Source: Minutocellus sp. GHC0000111 (taxonomy: Eukaryota). Taken from it: DNA of 64,000 bases. Location: NCBI GenBank assembly GCA_977018835.1, contig OZ361258.1, positions 3,906,001 through 3,970,000 on the forward strand, read 5' to 3'. The notes under the pieces are model-generated. The model was not told the origin of the DNA. It did not search any database and worked only from the letters and a program-made list of their open reading frames with translations. Below are positions 9,006 to 20,700 of the stretch, piece by piece (position 1 is the stretch's first letter; each line of letters opens with the position of its first letter). A program made the translations under genes and the position numbers.

Positions 9006-11878
9006 TTATTCCTCCGACGCCGTCAGTGCCGCCATGTAGGCCTTGTACAGCATGTTCTTGGCGATCTCGGCCTTTTGGTGGGGGTCCAGCTCGGCAACGA
9101 CGGGGGGAGGCCGATGGGCACGGCCATGGTGCTCACGGGTGCTCCCGCGGCGGGAGTTACTGCCGTGGGGAGAGTGGTGTGTTGCATCGGCAACAGGCCG
9201 GTGGGAGCAACGACGGTACTGGCCGGCTGTTGCTCCGCCATGCTTCCTGTGGTGGTAGTCGTCGAAACGGAGGCCGCTGCCGATAGAGATACGAGGTCCA
9301 GGCCCATGGCGGTGCGAATGGCCGAAGGAGGTTGTGGTCCGCCCGGGGGAGGGACCGTATCTCCCTTCCTGCGCTTGTTGGGCTGGACGATGGTACCGTC
9401 GGGCCCGGGAGCGGGCATGCCGAGGGGGACGAGCTGCGGATTGCCAGCCGGAGAGCGCCTCTTCTGCTGGGCCGCGGCAATGTTCGCCAGGAGGGCATCG
9501 TACACTCCCGGTGCCGGATACTGCGGCTGCTGCGATGGAGCGATGGGCAACGAGGCACCACCCCCGAGAGCTCCGAGTATACTCTGTGTTACACTCTGAG
9601 CCTGGGCCTGGACTTGAGCCTGTGGTGGTCAGACTGTTCTTGCGCGACACGGACGACGCCGACGTGATGGCCGACACGTCGTCGTTGGCCGTGGTGTGGT
9701 AGCTGGGAATGCCGAGGTAGGATCCGGTGTTGGGCACCTGCTGCTGCTGCAGAGCCTGCTGCGTCGCATGCGCCCCCACCGTGATGGCGGCGGCGGTAGC
9801 CGCGGCGGCGGCCGCAGCGGCCGCAACCGCAAAGGCCTCGGGGGTATCGCTCACCATGGGGACCTTCGCGCCCTTCGATTTCTTGCTGCCCCTGGACGAC
9901 GATGAAGATGACGACGACGACGAGGATCGTTTGCTGCTGCTGCTGCTGGTGCTGCTACCCTTCTTCCTCTTCTTGCTGCCCTTGTCGCGTTTCTTACCGT
10001 CTCTACTGCTGCTGCTACTACCAGTACCACCTCTGCCACTGCCGCTGCCGCCGCTCCTGCTGGTGGTTGGCTTGGGAGAGTCCGGAGGAGACACGCTCAC
10101 GTCGCGGGCGGGGTCGACTCCCGAGGTCCCGGTGCCGGGACCGCCGGTGGCCACGACGGGCACCGGCACCTTCATGGGGGCGGCGGCGGCAGCTGGAGTA
10201 CGAGCGGTGGTGACGACCGAGGACGGGGCCGTGACCGTCATGGCAGAGGGTGGCGGCAACCCCAGGGCCCCTGCGACCAACCCCAGCGGCGGCGGCGGCG
10301 GTGGGGGTCCTGCCAGCATACCGCCGAGCAAATGACCTGGGTGGTGTCCGGGAGCCCGACCTTGGCTTGCAAGACCGCCCTGAAGCTGAGCCTGGGCACG
10401 AGGCTGCACCTGTGCCTGCACCTGAGCCTGCTGCAGGGGTCGGGGCAGGGTCAGTCCCTTGGCGGCCGCGGCGACGGCCATTTGCTCCTGGTACGGCTGG
10501 TCGTAGATCGACGGGGGGACGACGATGCCCCTCGCGTGGAGCATGTCGATGCCCGACAGTTGGTTGGAGGAGTTCTTCTTGGCAGTGTTGGTAGCGGTGG
10601 GATGCTTCGTAGACGACTGGGTACCGTTGGTATTGTTGTTACCGGCAGCAGCACTGGCAGCAGCACTGGCACCGGCCGCAACCGCCGCTCGGACATTCGC
10701 CGCCGCCACGGCCTTGGCCGCCCCCCGCGCCTGCTTGGCGCATTCCATCCCCATGCACAGCTCGGGCAGATCCCTGCGAAACAGATGATGGTGGAAGGCC
10801 CCGGCGTCGGGACCTCGGGAGATCTGCCGGAACCCCCACCGGTTGAGCTTGCGGGTGAAGGAGGGGTACTTGGCGGCCGTGGCGGCCCGTTCGATCCGGG
10901 CTCGGCGGCGGGGCTTGCCCTGGGTGGGGGCGGGGTTGTTGTTGCTGTTGTTGCTGGGGTTGTTGTTGCCAGCATCGTTGTTAGATCTAGTAGCAGCAGC
11001 AGCCGTAGTATTGCCGCTCCCAGAACCAGAATTGCCGCTGCTGCCGTTGCCGCCACAGGCACTCTCGGGAAAGTACAGCGGCAGGACGTTGTCGGCAAAC
11101 ACCTCGGGCTGCAAGATGACAAAGGACTGGCCGTGGGGCAGCCACGTGATGACGGACTTGATGGTGGCGTCGGCCAGCATCCGCATCAGGCGGCGGGGGA
11201 AGGTTTCGCGGGGTGTTGACGTCGAAGTGGTGGAATTCGACGACGGAGGACGGGAGTTGCTGCCTGACGAGGCCGAGGCCGAGGTCGAGGCGGAGGTCGA
11301 GACTAAGGTCGGCGAAGCGGAGGCCGACGAAGCCTTCTTGGCGTTCTTATTATTCTTCTTCGACGCGCGCAGGGACGACTGGGTGGGCAGCTTCGGGTGG
11401 GCCCTGCGCTGCCGGCGGCGTCGCTTTCTTCTTCTTCTTGCCGTGGGTATTGGCATTGCTGTTGGCATTGGCATTGCCGGCGGCGCCCGAGGAAGGCACT
11501 AGTAGAGGGCCGGCGGCAGTATCGGCAGGCCCACCACTGCCGGTAGCGCAGGCGCTGGCAGCGGTAGCGATACCGGCGATGCGACCGTTGTTGGCATCGG
11601 CATCGGCATCGGCGGCAACGGACGGCATCGCCACCTGCTTGTGCGCTTGCGGACCGCCTTCGCCGTTGCCATTGCCGTTGTCGCTGCATGTACCGGGATG
11701 GCGCGCGACGGCGGCGGCGGCCTCCGCCAGCGACGAGAGGGCGGTCGCCGCCTCCATCAGATGGAACAGGTCATCGTTGCTGTTGTTGGCGTTGTTGCTA
11801 CCGGTAGTGCTGGGATTGCTGCCATTGCCACTTTCGGCGGCCGTCGAAGAAGCAGGGACGGAAGAGTCCGCCATGATG
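9006..11878 (-). CDS. heat-shock-factor (HSF) DNA-binding domain transcription factor, low-complexity; several apparent frameshifts (~11400, ~9580, ~9105)
   Basis: HSF DBD motifs TFPRRLMRML, ITWLPHGQSFVILQPEVFADNVLPLYF, KYPSFTRKLNRWGFRQI, AFHHHLFRRDLPELC. The N-terminal segment (DLFHLMEAATALSSL) and a protein-like stretch near the C-terminus are in other frames. Confidence 0.85.
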
Positions 11879-12403: not shown

Positions 12404-12963
12404 TGATCCGCATGGTGCATGTGCACGAGCAAATGGAGAATTTGACAGGCAGAAGCTACTAGCTAGTACTACGTAGGCCTAGTAAGTGGACCCATTGTGT
12501 GAGCCCCTTGACGCGCTTGAGCACACTTGACGCCCAACAGCTGCAGGGATATTTTTGCTATTTTTGTTGCCTTGACTTTCGATTTCGCGACGAAAATGAA
12601 TTTCGCGTGCGTCACCCCCCATTTTCACGTCCCCGAACATTTCCATTCAGCCAGCCAACGAGGGTACTTCTATCATTGGCTGCAACGCGAGCGCGCGCAA
12701 AAGGCTCTTTGGCCACACTCAGCATCTCCCAACTCGGCTCTTTTTGGCCCATCGAACAACCCTCCTGGCCCTTGGAAAGACGCACGCATGCCTGATTATT
12801 TGGCAGACGAATTAATTTTATCAGTTCTGCTTCAGCCACACATACAGCAAGCGCCGAGAGGATCCACGGCCTAGCTAGAGCCTGGATTCGTTTTCGAGAT
12901 CCCAGCTTGGGTTCGACTCATCACAGCTCCGCAAGCACGAAGTAGCCAGCCACCGAACAAAAC

Positions 12964-14013
12964 ATGGCTCCCGTCGGCGACTTTTACGTCCATGTTCTCA
13001 ATCGAAACGAGGAACAAATTGCCAATGGTGCCGCTACTGCCAAGTTGATCTCATCGAAGTGGCTCATCACCCAAGTCGGCGGAGGCAAACCGGCGGTCAT
13101 CCACTTCTACGACGGCGGGTGAGGCGGGTGCCGCCCCTGCGCGGCGCAGATGGAGCGGTGGGCGAGGCAGTATCCCGGTGCCACGTTCCTGTGCGTCTGC
13201 GTCGACACGTTGGGGGTAGCACAGCAATTCGGTCGGATGTTCGGCCTGCGGGCGGCCGTCAACTGCCACATTCCCAGCCAGGAGTATCTGCCCCGTGGAT
13301 ACGGCCAGCTGGGATGCTCGGGATTTGTCGTCGCCGATGGAGAAGGCAACTTCCTCAGCCGCAAGACGAGGGCCTACCTCGACTACGGCGATGCGGCCTT
13401 TGCCCATGTCGAAGAGCTGCTTGCTGGCCAAGGCGTGAGCAAGGGATCCGGTATTCAGTCTTCTAATTCGACGACCAGCAACAAGGACGACCGTGTGGAA
13501 GCGGTGGCTGGTGCATCGGACCACGATGAAAAGAAAGAAGATTTACCTGCAGAAAAGGTGCCATCGGTTGGTGTGGATAGTATGGACGACGAGCACGAAC
13601 GCTGCGAGGCAGCCCTTGCCCTGCTACGCCAAACGAATTCGGTCAAGGCGCTGGAAGCTCTAATGGGTGAACTGATCCAGCATTTTGAGCACGAGGAGAA
13701 TCTAATGAAGGAACACAATTTTGGTATTGCTGACGACAAAAACACCTCCTTCTCTCCTTATACCTCTCATTGCAAGGACCACGAACGCATTCTCGATATA
13801 GGATTCCGTGCCTTGGCCAGGGCTCATGGCTACTCCAAAGGCACGCCGAGTCTTGGTGATTGCGAAACTGGTTCCTGACACAAATCTCCAAGCGATGCCC
13901 CCAGCAAGACAGTGGACTCGTCTGTCTACAAGGAAATCGCCGAAGCGTTTGCCACGCACGCCAACTTCTTTGACGTATTGTATAGCGGTGCCATCCCTTC
14001 ACAGGCGAACTAA
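12964..14013 (+). CDS. thioredoxin-fold/hemerythrin fusion selenoprotein candidate (349 aa) with two in-frame UGA codons (13120-13122, 13876-13878)
   Basis: One frame runs from ATG 12964 to TAA 14011-14013, interrupted only by two TGA. The first sits in PAVIHFYDGG-*-GGCRPCAAQMERWARQYPGATFLCVCVD (Trx-like). Hemerythrin ligands H211, H240/E244, H269/H273 precede the second TGA; H332/D337 (AFATHANFFDVLY) follow it. Two SECIS-like hairpins lie downstream. Confidence 0.85.
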
Positions 14014-14059
14014 GGTGTGATACCTTGCTATACCTTCTTTGTATTCGATCCTTCACGTG

Positions 14060-14140
14060 CCGCTTCCTTCTCACTGAATGAATTTCCATTATATAGCAAC
14101 AGTTGTTAGTGTGGAGATGAAGATGTGTCGAAGAAGACGG
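14060..14140 (+). other. SECIS-like element 1 (cis-regulatory RNA hairpin in 3' UTR)
   Basis: ATGAA (14078-82) ... TGAA (14118-21) GA-quartet core. Upper helix TTTCCAT/GTGGAGA; lower helix CCGCTTCCTTC/GAAGAAGACGG. Folded by eye. Confidence 0.7.
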
Positions 14141-14183
14141 CTAGCATTTCAATAAGTCTACAATCATTGTATATACTTGGCTC

Positions 14184-14272
14184 GGGTATTCCCACGATGA
14201 ATGAAATTCCACCGACTGAAGTTGATATATCTTGTCAGTTCTGGAAATGAATATCGCCAGGGAAACCTGCCC
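14184..14272 (+). other. SECIS-like element 2 (cis-regulatory RNA hairpin in 3' UTR)
   Basis: ATGAA (14201-05) ... TGAA (14248-51) core. Upper helix TTCCA/TGGAA plus GACTGA/TCAGTT, with AA at the loop entry; lower helix CGAT/ATCG and TTCCC/GGGAA. Folded by eye. Confidence 0.75.
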
Positions 14273-14380
14273 TAGATTCGTAAATATGCGATTTAATCAA
14301 CAGTTTTGGATTGTGCATAATAAATTAGGGAGGAAAGGAACTAGCTTATTGGTCTAATGTTAGTCCAAGCGAGGTCAACT

Positions 14381-15589
14381 TCATAAGCAGTCAATGTGTA
14401 TCAAACTGCATACAAACTCAATTGTTTTCTTCAATAATATGGCAGGTACCTGCCGTAGCTCGGCCATTTGTCCATCTGAATACATTGTAGAACTTGAACT
14501 TGTCGGTGTTGCACCTCTACTTGCTTCAATCGGATCATATGCATAGACTTGTTCGTAGACCCAATTTGGCCCCGTGTAAAGGATCGGCGCAGAATAAATT
14601 AGTTGGCTTTGTTCTTCTTCTGGGAAAACATGGCTTGACTTTCGAGCTTCTTGAACGAAAAATAGAGCTGTTTCTATCGAAGCCCGAACCGCATTCGGCG
14701 AATGCGGAGTGTTGGTATAGGACCCTTCCTTTAGAGACCATTCAAAACTTGCCTTTTCAGGGTGCCACTGCACTCCGTAAAAGGGGTAATTGTATGCCTC
14801 CATGGTCGACACTTCCCCTCCGCTGGCTGTGGCGACATTCGTCGATAGGACTCGAAAGATTGAGTTCAGAGCTGTATTCCTGTCATACTCGTCTAGGAGG
14901 AATCCATGGCTGTGCGAATTGAACGTAATGTTCTCTTTGGAGAGAGCAGTTACCAAATCAGGGTCCATGGAACCAAAGAGTCGGCTGGATGGTGCTTCGG
15001 GAGTGAAGTTGAGAGGAAGGGCAATGTTCGTTGCCTCAACGTCCAAGCTAATGACGCTACCACTTCCAGTCTCCAATACCGACAATTCTTCAAAGCCAAG
15101 GCACGTGCCCCAAATTGGATAATAGTCTCCATTGTCGTTTGCCTCCTTCGCCATATCCCACAACAACTTTCCCTCCTCGGTGTATATGTCATCCGGCAGG
15201 ATTCCTTGGCTCCCTCCGGGTAGCAGCAAACCACTCGTACGGTTGAATATTTCTCGGTAGTAGTCCTTGGATCTGCCAAGCAATACCGGGATGGCGCGAG
15301 CACCTGCCTGCCCGACCCAGTTCACGTAACTTGACGGCACCATCAGATCATACGCAGCGAGAGGACCAGTAGTTGTGATTGTGCTCGTTTGTTGAGCAAA
15401 GATGCCAATGACTGGGCGAAGGTTGGGGTTTTCACTGGTCTGCGTCTGCTGCCTTTGCTGTTGCCGCCGTTGCCGCAGTTGAGATTGTTGATCAGTCACC
15501 ATCTGAGCGGAGCCGGAAGAGGGGACCAACCAGCAAACAGCAAAAAGAAAAGTCGCGGCAATTCGCCGAGAGAACGGGATCTGTGGCAT
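14381..15589 (-). CDS. GGH: gamma-glutamyl hydrolase (peptidase C26), secreted/vacuolar
   Basis: Signal peptide, then RPVIGIFAQ, SYVNWVGQAGAR, GLLLPGG, PIWGTCLGFE (nucleophile Cys) and YPFYGVQWHPEK. Confidence 0.9.
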   Translation of the reverse strand: MPQIPFSRRIAATFLFAVCWLVPSSGSAQMVTDQQSQLRQRRQQQRQQTQTSENPNLRPVIGIFAQQTSTITTTGPLAAYDLMVPSSYVNWVGQAGARAIPVLLGRSKDYYREIFNRTSGLLLPGGSQGILPDDIYTEEGKLLWDMAKEANDNGDYYPIWGTCLGFEELSVLETGSGSVISLDVEATNIALPLNFTPEAPSSRLFGSMDPDLVTALSKENITFNSHSHGFLLDEYDRNTALNSIFRVLSTNVATASGGEVSTMEAYNYPFYGVQWHPEKASFEWSLKEGSYTNTPHSPNAVRASIETALFFVQEARKSSHVFPEEEQSQLIYSAPILYTGPNWVYEQVYAYDPIEASRGATPTSSSSTMYSDGQMAELRQVPAILLKKTIEFVCSLIHIDCL

Positions 15590-15900
15590 CGTCAAATCTG
15601 TGTGCATTCTGGTCAATGTGCGTTCCGTAATCTTTGAAAGTCCATGCGCGGTCTTTTCAGGTCAGATGCAGCGAATGAAGCCTGGCAATCTTTGTGGCAT
15701 GGCATGGCATGGCATGGCCATCAGGTCAGAAGAAGAGGCCAGAAGCAAAGCCCGCGATACGGCGCGGCGGACTGAAGGACAGACCAAAAAGATATGCTGT
15801 CGATTTCGGGTCAATTTTTGACATCGCCGCGAGATGGCCAACCAAACCAACCAACCCGAAGCGGCATGTCAACTAACGGTACATTACTTGCGACTACTTC

Positions 15901-17741: not shown

Positions 17742-20700
17742 TTACAAGTGGTGGCCATCATCTCGAGAGCCACTTCGAGTATGCCCGATCCTAGCGATTG
17801 GTCTCTCGCGTCTACTCGATCCAAGCGCTGAAGTCGGCGGAGCAGATTGGCGCAATGCCGCGGCAGATACTCTATTTGCACTGCTACTGGGGTGCCGGTT
17901 GGTACTGCTGCGTTCCTTGCGTGGTTCAATGCGGTCGGAAGGATTGATTTGGGGCTTCTGGTGCTGCAAATTGCTTTGTGATTGGGGAGGCATCGAACGG
18001 CTATAGTCGGCTTGTTGCCTTTGCTGACTGCTTCGCACTCTTTGCAACCTTCGTCGCGATGATTCTCGGTCAACACTTACGCCACGTCCGCTGCTACTGA
18101 CTTGCTGCCGTGGTCTCCTCTCGGAAGAAGTGGTCGATGCTCTTTCGGCGTTTCTTGATCGTGAAGACGTTGAGCGTCTTTCGGATGGTATCTGACCATC
18201 ACGCCCATCCCGCGGCGATGCGCCAAGAATGGCCGGAGAAGCACCGTTTTCATTACCGCTACTACTCGCGGTCAATCTTGCTAGTTGCTCTTTAAGCATT
18301 TGGTTCTCGTGCCGCGTTGCCTTCAATGCTTGTGCCATCTTCTTGTTGAAACCTGCATAGTCAGCTGCCGGTGCGAGGCCCAATTTCTCAGACATTCGCA
18401 GGGTCTCTTGTTCGACGCTGATGTGAGATGCTTGCTCCGATTTATACATATCCTTGAGGGACCACATCATTTGCTGCATCTTCGATGGAGGGCCCTCAAA
18501 GACCAAAGGGGCTTCGTCGATGCTACCACTGTTTCGGACATTATGGGGCCGTGATACCTCTTGATGGGATTTCTCGAGGAGGGCAATTTCATCATCAAGG
18601 GCCTCCGACAAGTTGCGAAATTTCTCTTCGCGTTCCTTCCGATCTTCTGCATGCTTGTTGATCTGCTCCTTCAGAGTTGATATTTCTTTTGCATTCTTCT
18701 CCGCTGCCTCAATTTCAGCCTTCTCTCGTGCTTCCTTGACAATCTTCGCTTCTCTGACCTGGGCTTCATTCTGCAGACGAAGCTGTTTGAGCTCTTCTTG
18801 GAGCGCTGTGACTTCAGTATCTTTCTCTTTACGAAGGATTTCAAGATCACTGGTGAGCTTTGCTGTCTCCTCCTCACGAGTTGCATGCGTTGTTTCCAGA
18901 ACTTTCGAGTGGAACAGGTTTCAAAGAAATAATTTGATATTAGATTCAGAAGCGAGGCCAAAGAACAAGCAAACACAAAATTATGAAATACTGCAATCGA
19001 TTTGATTCGGCAAAGTGCCACTTACCGTCCATAAGCTTTGCAAGGTAGTCATGATGGCTGTCTCGGGTCTTTTTCAGCTCGTTCTTGAGGCGCATAATCT
19101 CAGATAGGTGCTCCTCTTGAACCCTCTCGACTTCATCTGTTAGCATTTCTCTTTCCATCCGAAGTGCCCGTTTCGATGCCTTGAGATCACCCTTGAGCTT
19201 TCGTATTTCAGCATCGCGGTCTGCGATAGCCTTTTCGTAATCGTTGCGCATGCCATCGACATCTTGCGCCTGAACCTCCTCTTGCGATTTAAGCTCTTTC
19301 TTCAGCTCTGCGACCTTTGCCTTACTTGCTTTGACTTCCAAATGTAGCTCTTCGTTCGATTTTTCCATTTCTGACAGCTTGGTTTTGGCCAGTTGCGATG
19401 CCGCCTGGGCAGCCTGCAAATTGCTTGTCAGTTCTCTATTCTCTTCATCGAATGCATTCGCATCAGTCTGCAGCTCTTCATTCTCGGCACGCAATTCTGA
19501 TATCTCCTTACGGAGGTAGTCAAACATGCTCTCCACTTCTTGCATCATATCCTCGTCCACTGGTTTCTTCAAATCTCGTCCCATGTCAACGTCGGCGTCA
19601 GCCTCTGGCGACAGAACGTGTACTTGTTCTTGCAACTGTGAGAGTCTATTCTCCATCCTCGCATTTTCAAGAAGTTCGGCGAGCTTCTCCCGAATGACAA
19701 TTTGGTTTCGTTTGTTTCGATAGTAGCGCTGGATGATGTAGGCTGCACATTTGACCTCGACGAAGTACCGTCTGTGCTTGATCATTCTCCATCTATAATA
19801 GTAAAAGTAAAATAATCGGGAAAAGAAGACACCGACAAAAGGAAAGGGAAAGGTTGAGTAAATATAATGTAGGGAGAGCCTGGCGGAGACAGAAAAACTC
19901 TGCATAAACGTGCACTCACCGGGCCTGAATGGCAGTAACTGCTCGGTTTTCTCGTCTCCACTCCAGTTCCCAAACGGCGAATAGACAACGGACGGCGCAC
20001 TGCAACGTAATGGCGGCTCTCTGTTTCTGTCGGAATGATCTGGTCGCGAGGTATGCTCGTCCTCTTGCTTGGATAACAATGGCCGCAAATCTCATTTCTT
20101 CATACCGTTTCCAAGCCATGATCAATCTCGCCCAAGTTTGTATGACAATCGCCCGGGAAGAAAAGTATTCCAATCGAATGCTCTCCAGACGCTCAAGAGC
20201 ACCGGCACGAAAGTAGACGTTGGTCTTTCCAAGAGCATACGGCATATCGTACCGGGAAGTGATGCCACAAAGCTTCATGAGGAGAAAATCGACTCGTTCC
20301 CTGATTGTACCGGAAAGTTTCATCTCATCCGGTGGAATGAGAATCTTGAAGCGTTCCATGACAGTGTCATAAGCCAAACGATTGGGGAAACTCTCCCGCG
20401 TAATAGCAATTGCTGTGACGAGGCCCGCACTTTGCAGTTGTGTCATCGTCATGGTGTGATTTGTTACTCCCGGGTCCATGTGATGATTCGGCTTGATGCA
20501 TCGGATATATCTGGTCTTTGTCTTCTCAATACACGCCATCAAGTCTGTTAGCTGTTTCTTGAAGGTCGTGATTACAGTGTGCTTTGTGGTGGCTCCACCT
20601 CTTCTCGGTGCACTCGCCATGGCATCCTGCACGGACGATGCCAACTGCTGAAACTCGCGCTGGATGGTTTTGTTGGTACTCTTGCATGCGCATTCCAGCA

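Follow-up and report, generated by a model that had tools for sequence, protein, structure and literature searches.

The mRNA of selenoprotein P (SELENOP) carries two selenocysteine insertion sequence (SECIS) elements and many UGA codons. Outside SELENOP, two such elements have been described for human Sep15, the upstream one being reported as non-functional, and predicted for Ciona SelW1 (PMC2874816). Among algae, Jiang et al. 2020 (PMC7539508) list a 'TlpA' selenoprotein with a hemerythrin domain; their examples of proteins with several selenocysteine (Sec) residues are PDI_e, SELENOW and SELENOJ, and TlpA is not among them in the excerpts of the survey available to us. Lobanov et al. 2007 (PMC2375036) report one 'thioredoxin-like protein' selenoprotein in Thalassiosira pseudonana, and the excerpts of their text mention neither hemerythrin nor two SECIS elements for it; it probably belongs to the family treated here. 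Statements on these three papers refer throughout to such excerpts. Our subject is a gene at 12964..14013 (+) of a 64,000-nucleotide stretch of Minutocellus sp. GHC0000111 DNA (assembly GCA_977018835.1, contig OZ361258.1, positions 3,906,001 to 3,970,000; hereafter the window, whose own numbering is used below). Very probably it is an intronless nuclear gene of diatom type, with two in-frame UGA codons that are both predicted to be read as Sec under the direction of one or both of two SECIS-like hairpins in its 3' untranslated region (UTR). The original prediction, made from the sequence of the window, had suspected that hemerythrin selenoproteins might not be new, and the algal TlpA of Jiang et al. 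2020 (PMC7539508) bears this out: the family itself is catalogued, and the window gene is a genuine, mis-annotated gene for a predicted selenoprotein.

The coding sequence comprises 349 sense codons from the ATG at 12964 to a TAA at 14011-13, has no intron, and aligns to its relatives end to end, the alignments of full-length relatives spanning query residues 1-4 through 346-349. An in-frame TAG lies upstream of the ATG (12943-45). Only two codons interrupt the frame, both of them TGA, just as had been predicted from the first reading of the sequence: codon 53 (13120..13122, +), a predicted Sec in the motif U53-G-G-C56-R-P-C59, and codon 305 (13876..13878, +), a predicted second Sec inside a loop between helices 3 and 4 of the hemerythrin domain. 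The two UGAs are 756 nt apart. A mechanical list of open reading frames (ORFs) holds only fragments of the gene, 12964..13122 (52 aa) and 13150..13878 (242 aa). In the window TGA also works as a normal stop: of the 21 ORFs with 300 codons or more, 8 end in it, among them that of the convergent neighbour at 14381-15607.

To check the two TGA codons for sequencing errors, we compared the window with Logan contigs that span both positions, drawn from four public runs in three studies. Two of the runs (X1 and X2) share one organism label, one is a sponge metagenome (X5) and one a marine metagenome (X6). Both TGAs are unchanged in the contigs of all four, which disposes of the suggestion, raised with the original prediction, that either might be a consensus error; the TGAs are not assembly errors. 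X1 and X2 may be the assembly's own sample, and independent support therefore comes from X5 and X6. The contigs do differ from the window nearby, at 13123 (X2 and X5) and at 13871, 13888 and 13890 (X6), and in a variant strain the second TGA is kept despite five substitutions in its vicinity. In the 3' hairpins, a variant strain shows one change, in an unpaired base of the first (A), and none in the second (B). Position 13123 is the base directly after the first TGA; it is G in the window and T in the X2 and X5 contigs, which turns U-G-G-C into U-C-G-C (a strain difference or an allele) with the TGA retained.

Of 5903 candidates from a word-seeded protein search, 138 were relatives at E<=1e-3; an exhaustive protein search gave 451 cluster representatives. 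The source labels of the relatives are Odontella, Thalassiosira, Mediolabrus, Stephanocyclus, Amphora, Pseudo-nitzschia, a Bacillariaceae metagenome-assembled genome and one Alexandrium-labelled scaffold. Cultured algae therefore express members of the family, several of whose entries are MMETSP transcripts. For most of its public proteins the match is limited to about 60-70% of the query's length, opening at M63 (the first Met beyond TGA codon 53), and most of them close at the second TGA. In seven full-length entries 'W' occupies both Sec sites, the pattern expected from gene calls that read TGA as Trp.

To these we added environmental contigs encoding relatives, using the best 80 of 100 confirmed (354 pattern matches) and reading them in frame with TGA as U. 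A check of the contigs for poly(A) tails, which would mark them as cDNA, found none. The question put with the original prediction was whether the two positions align to TGA or to Cys. At site 1, after removal of 12 near-duplicate loci, TGA is found in 53 of the 54 non-redundant loci that cover codon 53; in the sole exception, L034, the alignment is lost just upstream, perhaps at an intron. At site 2, with 14 near-duplicates removed, 32 of the 44 loci covering the stretch between hemerythrin helices 3 and 4 have an in-frame TGA. The remainder comprise L006, with Cys at the aligned position, L049, with Cys in a short loop, and ten loci with a short loop that holds neither. Within the clade characterized by ..GGU-GGC-RPC the site 2 TGA is present in 27 of 30 loci. 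Its surroundings follow the motif C-x(4-11)-U-[HQR]-[KR] in most relatives; L012, L013, L014 and L019 have no loop Cys, and L044 has the order reversed, S-U-x6-C, with U and C swapped.

The ..TGU-GGC-WPC clade lacks the inserted loop between helices 3 and 4. Six of its loci (L061, L067, L068, L069, L071 and L079) carry a second TGA elsewhere, in the linker before the hemerythrin domain, where it sits in a U-x4-C or similar motif, and the one-Sec relatives L059, L070, L077 and L078 have Cys-rich motifs at that same linker position. The linker TGA suggests a second, independent placement of Sec. Two further architectural variants were seen among the relatives. L044 (59-1786, +) encodes two tandem thioredoxin (Trx)-like domains with U-G-G-C in each, so that one ORF holds three in-frame TGAs; it additionally has a small inserted domain, and its ORF extends past the contig end. 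In many relatives (L046, L055, L060, L066, L069, L071 and L077-L080) the Trx-like and hemerythrin domains are separated by an additional conserved stretch, about 60 residues long; its pattern, ..YPYAVGS.V.L.GL...P.LNG..V.V..F....GRF.V.L...., looks by eye like a small beta-barrel insert, and the window protein does not have it.

The protein joins a Trx-fold U-x-x-C centre to a hemerythrin bundle, as had been proposed, and fold matches, a Pfam assignment and seven invariant iron ligands all speak for this. The Trx-like domain (TlpA/DsbE/ResA-type) occupies residues ~1-160 (12964..13443, +), as judged from an AlphaFold2 model, Foldseek and a profile search. The hemerythrin domain occupies residues ~203-343 (13570..13992, +), on the evidence of PF01814, the invariant ligands and a four-helix model. 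Pfam Hemerythrin (PF01814) is matched at E 1.8e-6, with 28.9 bits against a cut-off of 25.3; Thioredoxin is matched weakly, at 14.2 bits and below its cut-off of 23.5, and these are the only two Pfam matches to the protein at E<=1. Searched against the PDB, the family profile finds myohemerythrin best (E 2.6e-7), then thioredoxins from E 1.8e-6, and the DcrH sensor hemerythrin at E 0.04. No signal peptide-like start is apparent by eye.

The AlphaFold2 model has a mean predicted local distance difference test (pLDDT) score of 82.5 and a predicted template modelling (TM) score of 0.64. U53GGC56 lies in it between strand 44-49 and helix 56-69, the usual CxxC place of the Trx fold, and Foldseek groups the N-terminal domain with TlpA-like oxidoreductases, its best matches being to plasmoredoxin, DsbE, CcmG, ResA and their kin (E 5e-4 to 3e-3, target TM 0.5-0.7). 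The interdomain linker, residues 167-191, is long and disordered (pLDDT <50). The four hemerythrin helices are modelled at 205-224, 227-250, 265-287 and 319-335, and between the third and the fourth is inserted the loop of residues 288-318 (13825..13917, +), which holds C299 and U305 and is conserved as a motif in most relatives; its pLDDT is low, with a mean of 55 over residues 291-310. Ligands H273 and H332 are far apart in sequence, with a spacing of 59 residues; the equivalent ligands of myohemerythrin are 29 residues apart.

To define invariant columns we aligned 38 full-length relatives with the window protein (39 sequences). In the N-terminal half these are U53, G54, G55, C56, P58, M63, W66, P110, G114-F121 (GQLGCSGF, which includes C118), A145 and F146, and in the C-terminal half D208, H211, C214, H240, E244, H269, D272, H273, H332, D337 and Y340. 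The seven-ligand hemerythrin pattern H...HxxxE...HxxxH...HxxxxD is complete, with H211, H240, E244, H269, H273, H332 and D337, and the invariant C214 stands three residues past ligand H211. Coding conservation continues beyond each TGA, in G54, G55, C56 and P58 after site 1, and in ligands H332 and D337 together with Y340 after site 2. Since both of these ligands are encoded downstream of the second TGA, translation must pass it. The hemerythrin bundle is complete only with read-through of the second UGA, and a 304-residue product would be without helix 4 and two of the ligands. The conservation of TGA at both sites, with iron ligands beyond the second, upholds the claim of one protein with two predicted recoded UGAs.

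What chemistry this arrangement would serve can be sketched only tentatively. We propose, as a possibility that we regard as rather less than even, a redox relay linking U53/C56, the Sec305 loop and the di-iron/O2 centre. With both UGAs read as Sec through the 3' UTR element or elements, electrons would travel, in one direction or the other, between the di-iron/O2 centre and the selenol-thiol pair U53/C56 together with the mobile Sec305 loop; the invariant C214 stands close to ligand H211. The outcome might be reduction of peroxide or O2, or an O2-driven oxidation of the selenol-thiol pair. By analogy, the logic of such a relay would resemble that of the Cys-Sec arm of thioredoxin reductase and of the rubredoxin-to-di-iron relay of rubrerythrin. 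A bolder version, which we consider improbable, takes the second Sec, inserted in or near the hemerythrin domain, as a mobile selenol arm that couples the di-iron/O2 centre to the Trx-like selenol-thiol centre of an undescribed selenium/di-iron redox enzyme, the SECIS having been duplicated repeatedly since distant UGAs would benefit from a second element; were this true, the doubling for two widely spaced UGAs would be the first case outside selenoprotein P.

Two SECIS-like hairpins after the TAA were part of the original prediction, and both stand up. Hairpin A (14060..14140, +; AUGA at 14078-81, GA at 14119-20) and hairpin B (14184..14272, +; AUGA at 14201-04, GA at 14249-50) are each recognised by folding, by a motif scanner and by a covariance model, and lie 65 and 188 nt past the stop codon. 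When the RNA is folded freely, A and B each form two helices, a lower and an upper one, separated by an internal loop in which AUGA faces GA; the fold energy is -23.5 kcal/mol for A (z -2.1) and -26.5 kcal/mol for B (z -2.4), with z taken against dinucleotide shuffles. The scanner requires AUGA, GA, at least 6 of 8 core-adjacent pairs, a lower helix and a constrained-fold energy <=-14 kcal/mol; on 14014-14500 it returns exactly two candidates, hairpins A and B. Applied to 23,329 nt of the relatives' 3' UTRs (48 loci), it gives 52 sense candidates, 1 antisense and 21 in three shuffle sets.

The covariance model, R1, was built from 28 clear elements of relatives, none of them from the window; its consensus pairing was taken from the relatives' alignment and has 10 base pairs flanking the core. 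The window was searched with filters off and on both strands. The best hit in the 64 kb is hairpin B (14187-14239, 23.3 bits, E 0.0055) and the second is hairpin A (14064-14134, 20.2 bits, E 0.031). Applied to 60 relative loci, R1 gives 42 hits at E<=1; every one of them falls on the coding strand, and 14 are outside the training set. Over 38 R1-fitted hits the core-flanking helices are paired in 75.8% of cells, vs 47.6 ± 2.2% in shuffles (0/500 reach the observed value) and 35-44% when the partners are slid, and double changes are found at all 10 pairs. The consensus core has two unpaired bases before AUGA, a base after AUGA that is paired in 21% of cases, and then three that are paired in 93-100%. 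This core matches the non-Watson-Crick quartet of eukaryotic SECIS elements. A third R1 hit in the window, at 18701-18783 (-) with the core-like GAAUGAAGCC...GGCUGAAA, scores 14.2 bits (E 0.86) and was rejected as chance; it lies in a coiled-coil coding ORF and is no more stably folded than shuffles (z +0.76).

We counted SECIS elements in the relatives by merging scanner and R1 hits, removing 11 near-duplicate loci and requiring a 3' UTR of at least 250 nt. There are 31 two-Sec loci in this set, 15 with two or three elements, 13 with one and 3 with none; the one-Sec loci with such a UTR all carry one element (3/3), a sample too small to test a link. The two elements of the window share the surroundings of the core, UGAAUGAA.UUCCA ... 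UGGA.AUGAA, and are mutual nearest relatives among the 41 elements compared. For 10 of the 30 elements of multi-element loci the nearest relative lies within the same locus, including the pairs of L002, L019, L039 and L042. Pairwise identity is already ~0.70 between unrelated elements, so the duplication signal is weak; we infer that repeated local duplication or homogenisation may fit these data better than one ancient pair.

A number of observations weigh against reading A and B as SECIS elements or as a required pair, or the loop as part of a relay, and they should be set beside the evidence above. The scanner is only moderately specific: in the 64-kb window it finds a background of 24 sites on the (+) and 18 on the (-) strand, that is, 42 per 128 kb. 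In hairpin B, R1 pairs AUGA with the nearer GA at 14226-27 and not with the GA of the fold at 14249-50. The pairing statistic for the core-flanking helices is somewhat inflated, the covariation alignment having been fitted to R1. A search of 12800-14600 with the curated Rfam families (E<=10) returned no SECIS family, the only matches being three weak and unrelated ones; this weakens the description 'canonical SECIS' and not the evidence from core and helices. By our reading of the sequence, 15-18 nt separate AUGA from the conserved apical AA; in vertebrates this distance is shorter. Hairpin B may fall outside the mRNA. The layout of two UGAs with two SECIS elements is common in the family and not obligatory, so two elements are not required. 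As for the loop, a Cys-to-Sec spacing of 4-11 and the four relatives named above that have no loop Cys speak against a selenenylsulfide internal to it, and with a modelled pLDDT of about 55 the predicted geometry gives the relay no support.

How much of the gene is decoded, and by which element, admits other answers. The least probable of them, which we consider very improbable and largely refuted, is that the second TGA is a true stop yielding 304 residues, or that the locus is a pseudogene or an assembly error. Gene callers do end there and the loop is modelled at low confidence, but H332, D337 and Y340 beyond it are invariant in all 39 sequences, the in-frame TGA recurs in the same loop of 32/44 relatives with Cys in one, and the contigs from four runs and three studies keep it. 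It is a more serious proposal, though still an unlikely one in our judgement, that only one hairpin is a working SECIS and that the other is a recent local duplicate, redundant or decaying. One SECIS can evidently serve both UGAs, given the single element of 13 of the 31 two-Sec relatives with a UTR of at least 250 nt; A and B are nearest to each other among the 41 elements, as a young duplicate would be; and there are precedents for one idle SECIS in human Sep15 and perhaps Ciona SelW1 (PMC2874816). Yet the AUGA/GA core and both helices are intact in A and in B, which also take the two top scores in the window, and tandem elements recur in 15/31 two-Sec relatives. The 10/30 elements whose nearest relative lies within their own locus suggest repeated retention, and a variant strain shows one unpaired-base change in A and none in B. 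A further proposal, a division of labour like that of SELENOP in which each SECIS prefers one UGA and the doubling was selected for UGAs 756 nt apart, seems to us improbable. SELENOP itself is a known precedent, and at least two elements occur only in two-Sec loci (15/31 vs 0/3 of one-Sec loci with UTRs of at least 250 nt), but three one-Sec loci are far too few and many two-Sec relatives have one element.

For the function of the hemerythrin domain there is one main competing interpretation, namely that it is a sensor of O2, iron or NO which switches the oxidoreductase domain in the manner of FBXL5 or DcrH. Sensing is a frequent role of hemerythrin domains that are joined to other modules, the sensor hemerythrin DcrH is among the matches of the family profile (E 0.04), and the interdomain linker 167-191 is long and disordered. 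Set against this are the best profile match, which is the O2-carrying myohemerythrin, and the second Sec in the hemerythrin domain together with the invariant Cys beside an iron ligand, which point to redox chemistry. We consider sensing rather unlikely. We return, then, to the reading with which we began: a nuclear selenoprotein gene with both UGAs predicted to be decoded as Sec through A, B or both.

The genomic setting is eukaryotic: a histone deacetylase, a peptidase C26 and a DNA-binding protein of HSF type are encoded next to the gene. An AATAAA at 14319..14324 (+), 3' of both hairpins, is proposed from sequence alone as a possible poly(A) signal. The convergent neighbour at 14381-15607 (-), a peptidase C26 / class-I glutamine amidotransferase, terminates at TGA 14381-83. 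Only about 110 nt separate this stop from hairpin B, and the 3' UTRs of the two genes may overlap. Base composition varies along the window: G+C is 63-73% at 10000-11800, a stretch that overlaps the 5' part of the HSF-type gene (9006-11474, -), and about 50% around the selenoprotein gene.

These results have some practical consequences. Gene callers cut the proteins of this family at the TGAs, and public annotation hides both the complete hemerythrin domain and the two predicted Sec sites. The variable number of SECIS elements, from one to three, offers a natural series for testing copy number against read-through outside selenoprotein P. Sec inside an O2/iron-binding domain is an unexplored combination, and it occurs in ecologically important algae that rely on selenium and iron. 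In the full-text literature on hemerythrin, TlpA and two-SECIS selenoproteins, as far as the excerpts extend, we found no hemerythrin selenoprotein with two Sec residues and two SECIS elements, and no printed description of the second Sec in the hemerythrin domain, of its placement in the sister clade or of frequent tandem SECIS.

Compared with what has been described, the window gene comes closest to the algal TlpA of Jiang et al. 2020 (PMC7539508), with which it shares a Trx-like U-x-x-C Sec, a hemerythrin domain and an occurrence in diatoms and other algae, mostly in Sec-containing form; the match is by description, and the excerpts mention no second Sec and no two SECIS elements for TlpA. 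Sep15 and SelW1 (PMC2874816) are, like it, non-SELENOP mRNAs with two SECIS-like elements, but they have a single Sec each, whereas the window gene has two Sec codons and its tandem layout recurs in relatives. Like selenoprotein P, it combines multiple UGAs with a 3' UTR that holds two SECIS-like hairpins; the proteins are unrelated, however, the window gene has only two UGAs, and about half of its relatives have one detected SECIS. Thioredoxin reductase has a C-terminal, flexible Gly-Cys-Sec-Gly arm beside its redox centre. The loop of the window protein is similarly a segment, probably flexible, with Cys and Sec beside a buried redox centre, but the segment is internal, the Cys and Sec are 4-11 residues apart across the family, with the Cys absent in four relatives, and there is no flavin. 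Finally, the predicted hemerythrin domain appears to place the same H/HxxxE/HxxxH/HxxxxD ligands on the same four-helix bundle as myohemerythrin and bacteriohemerythrin (PF01814), and differs from them in its Sec loop of about 30 residues, its invariant Cys and its fusion to a Trx-like domain.

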